Source of the DNA: Patescibacteria group bacterium
GTDB taxonomy: Bacteria; Patescibacteriota; Minisyncoccia; Portnoybacterales; GWB1-42-6
Assembly: GCA_022709865.1 (NCBI GenBank)
Contig: JAKLIA010000001.1
Coordinates: 127,591-191,590 of the forward strand
DNA: 64,000 nt
Direction of reading: 5' to 3'
Below the pieces are notes generated by a model that ran no database searches, was not told where the DNA came from, and was given only the letters and a program-made list of their open reading frames with translations. The first letter of the stretch is position 1. Each line of letters starts with the position of its first letter. The translations under genes and the position numbers were made by a program. Positions 37,603 to 41,263 of the stretch are shown piece by piece.

Positions 37603-37669
37603 ATGATTTTATTTTAGCTTTTGCGGTTTTAGCGGGCTTGCCCGCCGAAGCTCGCAATAGCGAGCATAG

Positions 37670-37740
37670 GCGGGTATGGTTCAGTGGTAGAACGCGACCT
37701 TCCCAAGGTTGAGATGCGGGTCCGATTCCCGCTACCCGCT
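37670..37740 (+). tRNA. tRNA-Gly (anticodon CCC)
   Basis: Cloverleaf: acceptor GCGGGTA/TACCCGC, D stem GTTC/GAAC, anticodon stem CGACC/GGTTG with loop TTCCCAA, T stem GCGGG/CCCGC with loop TCCGATT; discriminator U; CCA not encoded. Confidence 0.8.
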
Positions 37741-37747
37741 CAGAGTT

Positions 37748-37871
37748 AGGGACGCAAGCCAACTGCTTGGCTTGCGTTGGGAATCGGACGCCGGAGCGTT
37801 GTTGCGCCAGCAGGCGCAACCGCGAGGCGGTGGCTAGCCCAAGGAGCGCGACGGCGCGACGAGAGGCGAAG
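37748..37871 (+). repeat. GC-rich structured repeat element, copy A (about 124 nt) between tRNA-Gly and tRNA-Thr; homologous to 40865-40997
   Basis: Shares about 80% identity over about 125 nt with copy B; contains a perfect 10-bp hairpin CGCAAGCCAA-CTGC-TTGGCTTGCG and conserved blocks CGCCGGAGCGTTG, CCAGCAGGCG, CGCGAGGCGGTGG, GGAGCGCG-CGGCGCGACGAGAG. Confidence 0.8.
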
Positions 37872-37897
37872 CCGATTCCCGCTACCCGCTCAGAGTT
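37872..37897 (+). repeat. 26-nt direct repeat duplicating the tRNA-Gly 3' end (T-loop to 7 nt past the 3' end); partner at 37722-37747
   Basis: CCGATTCCCGCTACCCGCTCAGAGTT occurs identically at 37722-37747 and 37872-37897, flanking repeat copy A like attL/attR. Confidence 0.85.
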
Positions 37898-37901
37898 TTA
37901 T

Positions 37902-37976
37902 GCCGAAGTAGCTCAGTGGTAGAGCAATCGCTTCGTAAGCGATAGGTCGTGAGTTCAATCCTCACCTTCGGCTCCA
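37902..37976 (+). tRNA. tRNA-Thr (anticodon CGU), CCA encoded
   Basis: Acceptor GCCGAAG/CTTCGGC, D stem GCTC/GAGC, anticodon stem ATCGC/GCGAT with loop TTCGTAA, T stem GTGAG/CTCAC with loop TTCAATC, then U and CCA. Confidence 0.8.
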
Positions 37977-37982
37977 TATTTT

Positions 37983-39090
37983 ATGGAAAATATTAATTTT
38001 AAAAAAGAACTAGAAGCTTTAACTGACCGGATCCAAAAGATTCAGGACCGTCTTTGACTTGGCTCGCGACGCCAAAAGGATAACAGAGATCGAAGAGCTA
38101 ATGAAAGACGGCGAGTTCTGGCAAGACCATGAACGCGCCGGAAAATTGAGCCAAGAAGTGGCGGAGCTGAAAGAAACGCGCGAGAAATGGGAAGAAATTG
38201 CGCTAGCTGTGGAAATACTAAAAACCGATTTGGCGCAATACGAAATTGGCGCAAATGAGGAGCAGGATAAAAAAATAGCTAAAGAGTTCGGCACTTTAGA
38301 AAAAACTGTGGCTGGCGAGGAACGCAAAACTTTTTTTGCTTTTCCCTACGCTAAAAACAACGCTATTCTTTCTGTCTATTCGGGCGCCGGAGGAACGGAA
38401 GCCCAGGATTGGGCACAAATGCTTCTGCGCATGTACCAGCGCTATGGAGAGCGAGCGGGCTTTGGAGTAAAAGTTTTGCATACCCATGAAGGCCAGGAAG
38501 CGGGAATAAAAAATGCTACTTTGGAAATTAGTGGCGCGTATGCCTACGGCAATTTAAAGAACGAAAGCGGCGTGCATCGCTTGGTGCGCTTGTCTCCTTT
38601 TAACGCCAATAATTTGCGCCACACTTCTTTTGCTTTGGTGGAAGTGATGCCGGAAATGGAAGAAGCCGGAGACATTAAGATAAAACCGGAAGAATTGCGG
38701 ATAGACCTGTTTCGTTCTTCGGGCCCGGGCGGGCAAAACGTCAATAAAGTGGAAACCGCTGTGCGCATCACGCATTTGCCAACAGGCATTGCTGTGGCGG
38801 CGCAAAGCGAGCGCTCCCAAAGCGCCAATCGCGAACAGGCGATGAAAATATTAGTGAGCAAGCTCTCCCAAATAGAACGGCAAAAGAAGGATAAAGAAGT
38901 GGCGGGGCTTCGGGCGGATATCCAAACAGGCGAGGGCACGGCCGAATGGGGCGGGCAGATCAGGAATTACGTCCTTCATCCTTATAAACTTGTTAAAGAC
39001 CTCAGATCTGGGGTAGAATCAAAAGAGCCGGACGAAATACTAGGCGGAAAGCTTGATGAGTTTATTGAGGCGGAAATCAGGCTGAAATAA
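37983..39090 (+). CDS. prfB: peptide chain release factor 2 with a programmed +1 frameshift at CTT TGA C (38052-38058)
   Basis: Frame 0 from the ATG at 37983 encodes MENINFKKELEALTDRIQKIQDRL and then TGA; the +1 frame continues as DLARDAKRITEIEELMKDGEFW... and carries the SPF and GGQ motifs; this is the classic CUU-UGA-C RF2 autoregulatory site. Confidence 0.9.
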
Positions 39091-40758: not shown

Positions 40759-40829
40759 TGGGGAGTAGCCAAGTGGTAAGGCAACGGACTCTGAATCCGT
40801 CATCGGGGGTTCGAATCCCTCCTCCCCAA
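40759..40829 (+). tRNA. tRNA-Gln (anticodon CUG)
   Basis: Acceptor TGGGGAG/CTCCCCA, D stem GCCA/TGGT-like, anticodon stem ACGGA/TCCGT with loop CTCTGAA, T loop TTCGAAT; CCA not encoded. Confidence 0.75.
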
Positions 40830-40864
40830 CAAACGACCCCGCATTTGCGGGGGAGGCAGTTGGG

Positions 40865-40997
40865 GAGAGCGAGCCAACTGCTTGGCTCGCGTGAGGGATG
40901 AGAACGCCGGAGCGTTGCCGAGCCAGCAGGCGAGGCCGCGAGGCGGTGGTTAGGCCGAGGAGCGCGGCGGCGCGACGAGAGCCGAAACCGAATCCCG
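40865..40997 (+). repeat. GC-rich structured repeat element, copy B, immediately downstream of tRNA-Gln; homologous to 37748-37871
   Basis: Same conserved blocks as copy A; the hairpin GCGAGCCAA-CTGC-TTGGCTCGC carries a compensatory A:T to G:C pair change relative to copy A; preceded by an extra hairpin CCCCGCATTTGCGGGG at 40837-40853. Confidence 0.8.
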
Positions 40998-41002
40998 ACT
41001 TT

Positions 41003-41263
41003 ATGGCTTATTATACTTATATCCTCGAATGCGCCGATAAATCTCTGTATGTCGGCTGCACTAATAATTTAGAGAAAAGAGTAAAGGAGCATAACAATTC
41101 CAAGTGCGGTGCGCATTATACAAAAATCCGCCGACCGATTATTTTAAAATATTCGGAAAAATATAAAACATTACTTAAGGCGCGCCGGCGCGAAGCGGAA
41201 ATTAAAAGTTGGAGACGGGATAAAAAAATACATCTAATTAAATTTGGTAAACTTAAAACTTAG
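41003..41263 (+). CDS. small GIY-YIG domain nuclease (YhbQ/UPF0213-like)
   Basis: 86 aa from MAYYTYILECADKSLYVGCTNNLEKRVKEHN... with the GIY-YIG pattern (YtYIL, YvGcT, R, E, N); the ORF-track N-terminal extension back to 40898 reads through the repeat and is rejected. Confidence 0.7.
   Translation: MAYYTYILECADKSLYVGCTNNLEKRVKEHNNSKCGAHYTKIRRPIILKYSEKYKTLLKARRREAEIKSWRRDKKIHLIKFGKLKT

Follow-up and report, generated by a model that had tools for sequence, protein, structure and literature searches.

The region analyzed here lies on the plus strand of a 64-kb stretch of DNA, referred to below as the window. It comprises two tRNA genes separated by a structured element (copy A), which is assembled from the following features:

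37670–37741, plus strand: tRNA-Gly(CCC), intact, the host gene of copy A (ARAGORN; Rfam tRNA, 67.5 bits)
37722–37747, plus strand: DR1, the tRNA-Gly 3′ end from the T-loop through 6–7 nt beyond the gene (exact 26-mer)
37742–37897, plus strand: the entire element copy A, from the base after tRNA-Gly through DR2 (covariance model R1)
37743–37751, plus strand: P1 5′ strand, weak here, with GAGU and GGG pairing with 37885–37891 (CCCGCUC) (minimum-free-energy fold)
37752–37777, plus strand: H1 hairpin, 11-bp stem with a CUGC loop (fold; family covariation)
37778–37787, plus strand: P2 5′ strand, or "anti-T," UGGGAAUCGG (fold)
37788–37874, plus strand: core three-way junction (RNAalifold and pair counts)
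37789–37792 with 37826–37829, plus strand: P3, CGCC with GGCG, enclosing H2 (RNAalifold and pair counts)
37831–37835 with 37870–37874, plus strand: P4, UGGCU with AGCCG, bearing H3 (37836–37869) (RNAalifold and pair counts)
37872–37897, plus strand: DR2, the copy of the tRNA-Gly tail, forming the 3′ strands of P2 and P1 (exact repeat; fold)
37902–37976, plus strand: tRNA-Thr(CGT), 4 nt past DR2 (ARAGORN; Rfam, 73.3 bits)

The original prediction for this locus is borne out, with two corrections. The tRNA-Gly gene is indeed intact, and the exact 26-nt repeat, CCGATTCCCGCTACCCGCTCAGAGTT, occurs just twice in the window, at 37722 and 37872, against a chance expectation for such a repeat in 64 kb that we estimate at ~5e-7. 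Imperfect homology lengthens the repeat to 37 nt at 89% identity (37711–37747 versus 37861–37897). The insert between the repeats (37748–37871) is 124 nt long and, as described, GC rich, at 68.5% versus 44.2% for the whole window. The perfect 10-bp hairpin is also present (37753–37762 with 37767–37776), and reaches 11 bp when 37752/37777 is counted. The T-loop of tRNA-Gly(CCC) is TCCGATT, with C at position 55. Two further hairpins noted 5′ of tRNA-Gly, at 37632–37645 and 37650–37665, do exist but are not part of the element; they are kept with compensatory changes at the tRNA-Gly site of locus L004, which lacks the element, and so belong to the tRNA-Gly leader. Between this leader and tRNA-Thr, neither a promoter-like nor a terminator-like site is predicted, so copy A probably lies, judging by its sequence context, within a tRNA-Gly/tRNA-Thr co-transcript. 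In relatives, DR2 and tRNA-Thr are set apart by a terminator and a promoter-like spacer.

The homologous copy that had been noticed beside tRNA-Gln aligns with copy A over 40869–40997 (83.7% identity over 129 nt, E = 2e-34), and no further element copy was found in the 64 kb beyond these two. The features of copy B are:

40759–40830, plus strand: tRNA-Gln(CTG), the host gene of copy B (ARAGORN; Rfam)
40837–40852, plus strand: hairpin CCCCGCAUUUGCGGGG, between tRNA-Gln and the copy B P1 5′ strand
40857–41000, plus strand: element copy B (R1, 126.8 bits over 40866–41004; alignment with copy A)
40860–40867, plus strand: P1 5′ strand UUGGGGAG, an exact 8-nt complement of the tRNA-Gln acceptor 3′ strand
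40869–40890, plus strand: H1 (sequence; alignment with copy A)
40893–40903, plus strand: anti-T GAGGGAUGAGA, with the core starting at 40904
40989–40996, plus strand: DR2 remnant CGAAUCCC, truncated, with half of the tail copy lost

The hairpin at 40837–40852 is the counterpart of hairpins at the same position in many family members. In 11 of 27 family copies a T tract is also present with it, a terminator-like arrangement between tRNA and element, so that transcription of the element is not assured. The truncated repeat of copy B adjoins a GIY-YIG gene, and this truncation beside the gene had previously been missed.

Fold of the element and pairing with the captured tRNA tail

Together, the insert and second repeat make up a single unit of ~140–160 nt that immediately follows a tRNA or tmRNA gene and has the same orientation. 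The original prediction treated the second repeat as a mere flank, and so missed both its inclusion in the fold and the two complementary 5′ segments; DR2 in fact forms the 3′ strands of two element helices. The consensus model shows a fold of two three-way junctions, P1-H1-P2 and P2-P3/H2-P4/H3, in which the 3′ strands of P2 and P1 are the copied 3′ end of the host tRNA. This captured tail runs from T-loop nucleotides 56–58 through the acceptor strand and discriminator (with CCA where it is encoded) into 0–12 bases of the trailer, and pairs with the P1 5′ strand and with the anti-T P2 5′ strand. In copy A, the anti-T UGGGAAUCGG complements the T-loop plus T-stem 3′ strand (CCGAUUCCCG) of DR2, and that of tRNA-Gly equally. 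The element itself has no T-loop because the T-loop bases are paired in P2. The core carries the conserved strings GAACGCCGGAGC and GCGAGGCGGUGGCYAG, and contains a GNRA loop and tandem G-A motifs.

Covariation strongly supports this structure (RNAalifold and pair counts). Copy A scores 137.2 bits (E = 1.5e-36) across 37751–37888 with covariance model R1, and its region has a fold energy of −83.8 kcal/mol (z = −4.9 versus shuffles). In the genome set 92.8% of cells are paired, as compared with 72.7% after shuffling and 30–42% with the partners slid, and double changes occur at 30 of the 41 pairs; the corresponding values for an independent metagenome set are 92.7% versus 65% shuffled, with double changes at 36 of 41. 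All nine consensus pairs of H1 covary across the family, as do pairs of P3 and P4 in divergent copies, and 115 of 116 copies have complementary bases at a P3 pair that the search pattern left unconstrained. G-U is in excess over A-C on the tRNA strand (73 versus 25), and the compensatory changes expected of structured noncoding RNAs in general are found here on the presumed transcribed strand. In addition, each element pairs better with its own tail than with those of other elements (P1 5′ strand, p = 2e-6; P2 5′ strand, p = 5e-5), and the anti-T tracks the T-loop of the local tRNA in L010, L007, and copy B.

A non-functional att scar, or ancestral intergenic sequence, would account for a small, repeat-flanked unit with no ORF of its own, and the remnant att region of a lost integrative element was among the candidates put forward originally. 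However, ~150 copies share the covarying fold, relatives have tRNA-Gly sites without the element, and the GC content of the element is 0.66–0.70 in a genome of 0.44. Many Patescibacteria lineages share the conserved body, with compensatory changes that an att scar would not keep, and the remnant is thus unsupported. We regard a scar or ancestral spacer as scarcely credible, ruled out by the covariation together with the element-less tRNA-Gly sites.

Distribution of the family and turnover at tRNA genes

The search for additional copies that had been proposed recovered many, in both genomes and metagenomes. The family total of at least ~150 copies combines a genome scan, with at least ~43 true loci, every one in a Patescibacteria MAG, and a metagenome scan, with 105 model hits within the first 100 of 120 loci; all recovered copies come from Patescibacteria genomes or metagenomes. 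Hits of the first search pattern in Streptomyces, Azospirillum, and Planctomycetes are coding DNA without the flanking conserved blocks, and were therefore rejected as chance matches. About 80% of copies immediately follow a tRNA gene on the same strand (33 anticodons) or a tmRNA gene. Among metagenome copies, 78 of the 100 with sufficient flank have a same-strand tRNA 25–200 nt 5′ of the core, representing 33 anticodons, and three further copies follow tmRNA genes. The host tRNAs span at least 18 amino-acid types, a recurrence that, like the one behind tmRNA, had escaped notice in the original prediction. Most copies with an adjacent tRNA end in the tail of that gene, usually from the CGA of the T-loop (CGAAUCC...). 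The terminal repeat matches the local tail exactly over a median of 18.5 nt and a maximum of 33, the duplication being 8–33 nt long with a variable 3′ edge.

Approximately 12–15% of copies are orphans, with a tRNA-like tail, in some cases including CCA, and no cognate tRNA within several kb. Such tails lacking an adjacent complete tRNA, and an element 3′ junction at T-loop position 58/59, are what would be seen if the functional tRNA used the downstream tail and the element were an intervening sequence removed from the T-loop of a split tRNA. We consider this very improbable, since most copies, including those in the window, have a complete tRNA upstream, the orphans are not preceded by a matching tRNA 5′ half, and the complete tRNA often has a terminator-like hairpin behind it. 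The group I intron model (RF00028) also has no match in the element at E up to 10, and the host tRNA is intact.

Family members are shown to be gained, lost, tandemly amplified, and replaced at tRNA genes, while the tRNA stays intact. Orthologous tRNA-Gly loci lacking the insert, as had been anticipated, do exist (L004 and L005). L009 and L010 are 99.96–100% identical across 6 kb, yet carry two units and one unit, respectively, and the window and L004 have identical tRNA-Gln genes with very different elements behind them. The identity of copy A to copy B (83%) and to a tRNA-Ser copy in another genome (80%) exceeds that to copies at the orthologous tRNA-Gly site in relatives (69–74%). Tandem and decayed copies are present in the family, only some tRNAs within one locus bear the element, close relatives lack it at the same tRNA, and elements group by host lineage rather than by tRNA type. 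This turnover around intact tRNAs indicates that the element behaves as a noncoding, non-autonomous mobile or duplicative unit. Copies in the same genome are 83% identical rather than near-identical, and there is thus no sign of a recent burst.

The main rival to a mobile unit is a host-useful, tRNA-linked RNA, that is, a scaffold presenting a mimic of the acceptor/T-stem strand of its tRNA. Such an RNA could be a decoy, a sensor, or a processing or quality-control signal for an enzyme that binds tRNA ends, with the repeat and the polymorphisms arising as by-products of local duplication. Consistent with this, core sequence and fold are kept across many Patescibacteria lineages, copies in the same genome have diverged in the manner of paralogous genes, and the element is always on the tRNA strand, probably within tRNA transcripts. 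P1, the hairpin, and P2 are laid out like an acceptor stem, D-arm, and T-stem, and in L007 the repeat departs from the tRNA at one base that improves pairing of the P1 5′ strand. A host function is harder to reconcile with the patchy distribution, in which the same tRNA is without an element in close relatives and just a subset of the tRNAs in a locus bear one, with tandem arrays and decayed copies, with unrelated alleles at one site, with the loss of half of the copy B tail copy, and with the failure of the Rfam tRNA model to match the element. We view a host-useful RNA as a serious possibility, though not the probable one.

Searches for known families, coding capacity, and mobilizing enzymes

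In Rfam 15, only four tRNAs in the window attain the gathering score, and even with E allowed up to 10 nothing credible is found over 37742–37897; the weak matches that overlap copy B (13.7–16.3 bits) fall far under their gathering scores. The element is not called by the Rfam tRNA, tmRNA, and TLS models or by ARAGORN, it is matched by no known self-cleaving or splicing ribozyme model in Rfam, and no Rfam family was found for the GC-rich region 5′ of orphan copies. We could not find this large element family described in Rfam 15 or in the literature searched, literal core strings included, and it is apparently undescribed. The nearest paper, on group I introns that occur in tRNA genes of Patescibacteria, makes no mention of the element (PMC13011429).

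A protein-coding reading was rejected on the basis of indels that are not multiples of 3 and of paired double substitutions among members. ORFs over the elements, 37767–37922 (51 aa) and the 5′ extension of 40898–41263, are mechanical calls. A MITE was likewise rejected, since the inverted repeats are internal helices rather than termini and the duplication is not of fixed length.

The neighborhoods of ~40 copies (118 ORFs, 122 Pfam families) contain no recombinase, transposase, or reverse transcriptase (RT) among the 25 families listed, which include every family present in at least two neighboring ORFs. RVT_1 adjoins only one of ~150 copies (L195), and we therefore discarded a retron, DGR, or other RT-linked noncoding RNA. 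In L211, the sole such case, the tRNA and its element are separated by a serine-recombinase remnant; tblastn with this remnant and with the L195 RT gave no further copies. Small GIY-YIG genes, which occur near tRNAs in 8 of ~45 genome-derived loci and beside copy B, were considered as a mobilizer and rejected for their inconsistent placement. Some precede the tRNA, others lie between tRNAs or follow the element, and no link is demonstrated. Viral contigs searched with three patterns gave only chance matches in high-GC phage DNA, and no longer or protein-coding parent with the same ends was found.

A further rival is a miniature, CIME-like integrative element moved in trans by a tyrosine or serine integrase encoded elsewhere. 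The repeats would then be attL and attR, and the element would bring a tRNA 3′ end, often with a terminator, that restores the gene. The insert is flanked by an exact 26-nt direct repeat of the tRNA 3′ end, which starts in the T-loop and so has the classical footprint. Furthermore, the native trailer lies after DR2 (L004 versus L010), many copies bring a terminator-like hairpin of their own behind the restored tRNA, the tandem units are reminiscent of site-specific integration in tandem, and L211 retains its serine-recombinase remnant. Nevertheless, neither an integrase in cis nor an autonomous parent sharing the ends was found among the 118 neighboring ORFs and the viral contigs, and no integrase recurs near the ~40 copies. 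Moreover, compensatory changes in five helices are not expected of att arms, no T-stem-like inverted repeat is formed by the sequence preceding the direct repeat, and clustering by host lineage instead of tRNA type is a poor fit to a fixed attP. An integrase-driven origin therefore appears improbable to us.

We hold a similarly low opinion of RNA-guided or RNA-mediated mobility, in which the two 5′ segments would act as guides to the 3′ end of the tRNA gene or of the tRNA, and the copying-in would fall to the core, acting as a ribozyme, or else to an unlinked reverse transcriptase or nuclease. The ~17–20 nt that are complementary to the target, in two parts around H1, change in step with the target tRNA, and the copy B P1 5′ strand remains a perfect 8-nt complement of the tRNA-Gln acceptor despite the truncation of its own tail. 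The complex core, with its GNRA loop and tandem G-A motifs, and the variable 3′ boundary of the repeat would also fit. However, any strand that pairs with the tail copy is trivially complementary to the tRNA as well, P1 of copy A is weak, and neither the single RT-adjacent copy nor the ribozyme models lend it support. Group II introns are reported to be absent from Patescibacteria (PMC13011429).

Proposed spread among tRNA genes and relation to known systems

Two of the original candidates, a miniature mobile element that targets tRNAs and a new structured small RNA transcribed along with tRNAs, fit the evidence jointly. None of the three outcomes named beforehand as refuting came about, since additional copies were recovered, the fold has covariation support, and L004 and L005 are orthologous tRNA-Gly loci free of the insert. 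With about even confidence, we favor a structured RNA element, noncoding and non-autonomous, whose spread among tRNA genes leaves those genes undamaged. The element would be transcribed together with its tRNA, and new copies would be generated when recombination or template switching takes place at the T-loop sequence, which is universally conserved and is mimicked by the element 3′ junction, RGCCGA|AUCC. A second, imprecise junction in the trailer would, jointly with the first, duplicate the target 3′ end, and both 5′ strands may afterwards co-evolve with the captured tail. The conserved core presumably binds a putative trans-acting factor, for spread of the element or for a host function. 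We note that strong core conservation across many Patescibacteria lineages is equally expected of a host-useful RNA, and that switching tRNA type demands many compensatory changes in two 5′ strands, which is awkward for passive recombination.

A bolder version, which we think unlikely, is a self-contained RNA-programmed mobile unit. Its transcript would read the 3′ end of a tRNA or tmRNA gene via two guide segments, and either a catalytic core or an unlinked host enzyme recruited by the core would copy the unit in behind the gene, duplicating the target tail. If true, this would be a retargetable insertion system that is free of protein genes and harmless to its target; target complementarity without a linked protein gene hints at such a programmable mechanism.

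If the family is as it appears, Patescibacteria hold a widespread class of folded RNAs that is attached to tRNA and tmRNA genes and incorporates the gene tail. Genomes of ~1 Mb yet retain many units, which would represent either a selfish but harmless inserter into essential genes or a new layer of tRNA biology. For annotation, tRNA-tail fragments behind tRNA genes in CPR MAGs risk being read as prophage att scars. Natural alleles with zero, one, and two units constitute a clean test set for the family.

The element resembles tRNA-targeting integrative elements and CIMEs in its T-loop-to-3′-end direct repeat, its intact tRNA, the displacement of the native trailer to the far repeat, its tandem units, and the element-less sites in close relatives. 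In contrast to these, it is 130–190 nt long and has no cargo, no cis-encoded or recurrent integrase, and no coding parent that we found; its covarying body uses the repeat as a helix strand, and it clusters by host lineage. MITEs, RPE, Correia, and REP/BIME sequences are likewise short, noncoding, multi-copy, structured, and variably present. Unlike them, the element has neither terminal inverted repeats nor a short, fixed-length target duplication, its copies have diverged and do not suggest a burst, and it sits strictly at tRNA or tmRNA 3′ ends in one orientation.

The Mauriceville and Varkud retroplasmids of Neurospora mitochondria are small replicon-like RNAs with a tRNA-like 3′ end, variants of which capture tRNA sequences, integrate at tRNA genes, and leave flanking tRNA repeats. 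These are eukaryotic-organellar, kilobases long, and encode their own reverse transcriptase, whereas an RT lies beside one of ~150 element copies only. Group II introns (EBS/IBS) and IS110 bridge RNAs also offer structured RNA with segments complementary to the insertion target, but are encoded beside an RT or recombinase and make no ~20-nt target duplication; our element shares the complementary segments and has no linked RT or recombinase gene. An acceptor-like helix stacked on a T-stem-like helix recalls the tRNA-like domain of tmRNA, viral TLSs, and YrlA, and some elements sit behind tmRNA. These modules differ in having a T-loop, a fixed tail instead of one copied from the neighboring gene, and, for the tRNA, tmRNA, and TLS models, Rfam profiles that do not match the element.

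Group I introns of Patescibacteria tRNA genes occupy the anticodon loop (35/36 among others), are self-splicing, and mostly lack endonuclease genes (PMC13011429). The element departs from them in matching no RF00028 model, in being half the size, and in lying outside an intact tRNA; in common with them, it is a structured RNA associated with tRNA genes in the same phylum.

The element behind tRNA-Gly and tRNA-Gln

The predicted feature is real and is a member of a widespread family of elements: GC-rich folded units directly 3′ of a tRNA or tmRNA gene that end in a copy of that gene's tail. The window is part of a genome of Candidatus Portnoybacteria (Patescibacteria/CPR), with identical contigs in three public samples, and its local gene order is lepA, divIC-like, tRNA-Gly, element, tRNA-Thr, prfB, ftsE, ftsX, tRNA-Gln, element, GIY-YIG.

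Principal features around the two copies
37670-37741: tRNA-Gly(CCC), called by ARAGORN and Rfam
37742-37897 (+): copy A of the element
37902-37976: tRNA-Thr(CGT), called by ARAGORN and Rfam
40857-41000 (+): copy B of the element, behind tRNA-Gln(CTG)

The original prediction described a repeat of the tRNA-Gly tail around a GC-rich 124-nt insert, and this description holds. The window contains the 26-mer CCGATTCCCGCTACCCGCTCAGAGTT at two positions only, 37722 and 37872 (the direct repeat reaches 37 nt when weaker homology is counted), and the 124 nt between are 68.5% GC, versus 44.2% for the window. The predicted perfect hairpin is present within the insert (37752-37777), as is the homologous copy by tRNA-Gln (40869-40997, 83.7% identical to the first); there are no further copies in the window. 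The insert is far more stable than shuffled sequence (−83.8 kcal/mol, z = −4.9). The two hairpins noted 5′ of tRNA-Gly (37632-37665) also exist, but are unrelated to the element. They show compensatory changes and are conserved in two relatives, L010 and L004, the latter element-free at tRNA-Gly, which suggests a conserved pre-tRNA-Gly leader structure. Further downstream, prfB (37983-39090) has a canonical +1 programmed frameshift site, CTT TGA C, at 38052-38058, where a short upstream frame, with its ATG at 37983, gives way to the main frame.

A family with a common position and fold

A pattern from two blocks conserved among copies, scanned against one genome per species, gave at least 120 matches, from which true copies were distinguished by conserved flanking blocks and a profile search. 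Among the matches listed, at least 43 or so are true copies, all in Patescibacteria MAGs (Magasanik-, Uhr-, Yanofsky-, Kuenen-, Gribaldo- and Portnoybacteria, and Parcubacteria), and the remainder are chance matches in high-GC coding DNA. Two MAGs labeled "Gammaproteobacteria" (L019 and L037) have typical copies on low-GC contigs (0.41-0.49) and may be mis-binned or mislabeled Patescibacteria. A more degenerate pattern returned at least 120 metagenome loci; in the first 100 of these, a covariance model derived from the genome set recognized 105 copies. Three scans of viral contigs gave no real copy. In the collections scanned, the family is confined to Patescibacteria.

In the genome set, a same-strand tRNA precedes nearly every copy whose flank is long enough, at a distance of 40-170 nt, and the copy terminates in an exact duplicate of the tail of that tRNA; these tRNAs comprise at least 13 isotypes. 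The independent metagenome set has a same-strand tRNA 5′ of 78 of 100 copies, with 33 anticodons and 18 amino acids represented. Three more metagenome copies (L150, L173 and L203) sit behind a tmRNA gene and repeat its 3′ end. The specificity of the element is thus for RNA genes that have a tRNA-like 3′ end, a class broader than tRNAs. The tail repeat almost always starts at C56-G57-A58 of the T-loop (CGAAUCC...) and takes in the acceptor strand, the discriminator and the encoded CCA, stopping 0-12 nt into the trailer (exact length: median 18.5 nt, maximum 33). Because trailer bases are included, the tail copy stems from the gene or precursor and not from mature tRNA.

RNAalifold, applied to a plain MAFFT alignment of 39 copies, predicts a consensus fold of 41 pairs.

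Helices and hairpins of the element (P1 is additional to the consensus fold)
P1: segment immediately 5′ of H1, with the acceptor part of the repeat
H1: hairpin of nine consensus pairs
P2: anti-T segment, with the T-loop and T-stem part of the repeat
P3: CGCC with GGCG; bears the variable hairpin H2
P4: UGGCY with RGCCG; bears the long hairpin H3, often with a GGAA loop and tandem G-A motifs

Standard pairs occupy 92.8% of cells in the genome set, compared with 72.7% in shuffles and 30-42% for slid partners; in the metagenome set the comparison is 92.7% versus 65%. Both sides change in 30 of the 41 pairs in the first set and in 36 of 41 in the second, giving the structure suspected from the sequence firm support from covariation. 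P3 and P4 are invariant in the genome set only because the search pattern fixed them; the second pattern left the P3 position free, and 115 of 116 distinct copies have complementary bases there. A divergent copy in L004 replaces the usual pairs with CGGC/GCCG and UGCCC/GGGCG. On the tRNA strand, G-U pairs outnumber A-C pairs (73 versus 25), which favors an RNA, or a single-stranded form, of that strand.

Each element's own tail is a significantly better partner for its P1 and P2 5′ strands than tails taken from other elements (p = 2e-6 and 5e-5). Structurally, then, the repeat is one strand of the element itself, and the two 5′ strands follow whichever tRNA the copy sits behind. In copy B, the P1 5′ strand (UUGGGGAG) complements the tRNA-Gln acceptor strand exactly and the anti-T (GAGGGAUGAGA) matches the T-arm with a tandem G-A, while the anti-T of copy A (GGGAAUCGG) fits the unusual TCCGATT T-loop of tRNA-Gly. 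This loop (37718-37724) has C at position 55, where nearly all tRNAs have U, modified to pseudouridine; relatives have TTCGATT.

From the tRNA-Gly leader to prfB, no promoter-like or terminator-like site is predicted, and tRNA-Thr starts 4 nt after the second repeat, so copy A probably lies within a tRNA-Gly/tRNA-Thr co-transcript. Relatives have a terminator and promoter-like spacer at the corresponding position. Co-transcription as a family-wide rule is countered by 11 of 27 genome-set copies, in which a terminator-like hairpin and T tract lie between the tRNA and H1; there, either read-through is required or the hairpin is the element's own device for terminating the restored tRNA. attP-borne tRNA ends often carry such a device.

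Gain and loss at orthologous loci

Orthologous loci, retrieved via FtsX homologs, differ in whether they contain the element. An ancestral spacer was the alternative to insertion in the original prediction; two loci, L004 (FtsX identity 92%) and L005 (88%), have no element at tRNA-Gly, which is directly followed by its own trailer and terminator, or by another gene. One unit is present in L007 and L008 (84%) and in L010 (79%), and two in tandem in L009, which is 99.96-100% identical to L010 over 6 kb except for one 186-bp unit. The L010 sequence past the second repeat matches the trailer and terminator directly 3′ of tRNA-Gly in L004, so the native 3′ flank sits after the second repeat. At these loci, the element behaves as an insertion. 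The second repeat tracks the local tRNA: in L007, tRNA-Gly has CCCTTCACCCGCT and its repeat differs by one change.

The relatives' elements at the orthologous tRNA-Gly site resemble copy A less (69-74%) than do copy B (83%) and a tRNA-Ser copy from another genome (80%). L004 and the window share a tRNA-Gln gene of 100% identity yet have very different elements behind it; that of L004 (7372-7501), detected by the covariance model and missed by the pattern, has a GC content of 0.42, lacks H1 and retains an intact 21-nt repeat. Other loci have tandem units and internally deleted copies, and within one locus only some tRNAs bear a copy. Together, these patterns speak against simple vertical descent and for recurrent gain, loss, replacement or gene conversion. 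Some intact copies have a tandem neighbor that is internally deleted, AT-richer or partial (L114 3960-4040, L101 4526-4619, L118 2624-2758, L127 385-997), which indicates decay following duplication.

Approximately 12-15% of copies are orphans, with no cognate tRNA within 1-9 kb; they keep a tRNA-like tail, some with CCA, and the genes upstream look accessory. Eight or nine (L066 1105-1130, L145, L152, L169, L176, L188, L211, L216, L246) have, 60-100 nt on their 5′ side, a conserved motif (AAAAAGGTTCGARCTTCGTTCA) that contains a T-loop-like GGTTCGA within GC-rich sequence lacking an Rfam match. This region may be the terminus of a larger element or a different RNA. In L211 (283-1900), tRNA-Gly(TCC) lies 1.4 kb upstream of its element (19-nt repeat); between them are a serine-recombinase remnant (Zn_ribbon_recom) and a metalloprotease-like ORF, and GGTTCGAGC is found close to either end of this interval. 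Larger insertions can thus separate tRNA and element.

Small GIY-YIG genes (∼85 aa) cluster at tRNA loci that bear the element: they adjoin tRNA genes in the window (41003-41263), L004 (6962-7342), L035, L036, L041, L048, L057 and L082. The window ORF has its start 6 nt beyond the truncated tail repeat of copy B. In L004, the order is a partial tRNA-Gln copy with a 30-nt insert, the ORF and the intact tRNA; this gene, with its duplicated tRNA-Gln 5′ part, looks like a separate insertion into a tRNA gene.

Origin of copies and comparison with known families

We infer that the element is non-coding and non-autonomous and multiplies among tRNA genes; ORFs called over it are mechanical. A Pfam census of 118 ORFs within 1.3 kb of ∼40 copies matched 122 families. 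Neither recombinase, transposase nor reverse transcriptase (RT) is among the 25 listed, which include all families in at least two ORFs, and the commonest, GIY-YIG, has three ORFs, level with T4SS_pilin. Near ∼150 copies there are one serine-recombinase remnant and one RT, an RVT_1 gene (335 aa; L195 70-1074) that ends ∼300 nt upstream of a same-strand orphan copy. Set beside this census, a classical integrase-mobilized mini-element, which the terminator-like hairpins might recall, is less likely, as is an RNA-guided mechanism, with which the fit of the 5′ strands to the local tRNA would agree.

In the route we favor, the T-loop would be the site of the recombination or template switching that gives rise to new copies. 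The 3′ junction of the element, RGCCGA|AUCC, resembles a T-loop, which gives every copy a stretch of homology with every tRNA and tmRNA. This route would explain the fixed 5′ edge and variable 3′ edge of the repeat, the lack of a linked enzyme and the occurrence at tmRNA. It does not account for the strong conservation of the core, or for the re-fitting of the two 5′ strands after a change of tRNA, and a trans-acting partner is therefore likely. Core conservation also sits well with the main rival, a host-useful RNA displaying a mimic of the tRNA tail, which has to be weighed against the gain and loss among relatives.

The family has no match in Rfam 15 (up to E = 10) and no description in the literature searched, literal core strings included, and fails the defining tests of every family compared. 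tRNA models make no call on the element and no group I model matches it. A T-loop intron or split tRNA, although suggested by the repeat's start in the T-loop, is less likely. The nearest paper describes Patescibacteria tRNAs with group I introns at position 35/36 and reports that the phylum lacks group II introns (PMC13011429); in contrast to those introns, the element leaves its tRNA uninterrupted.
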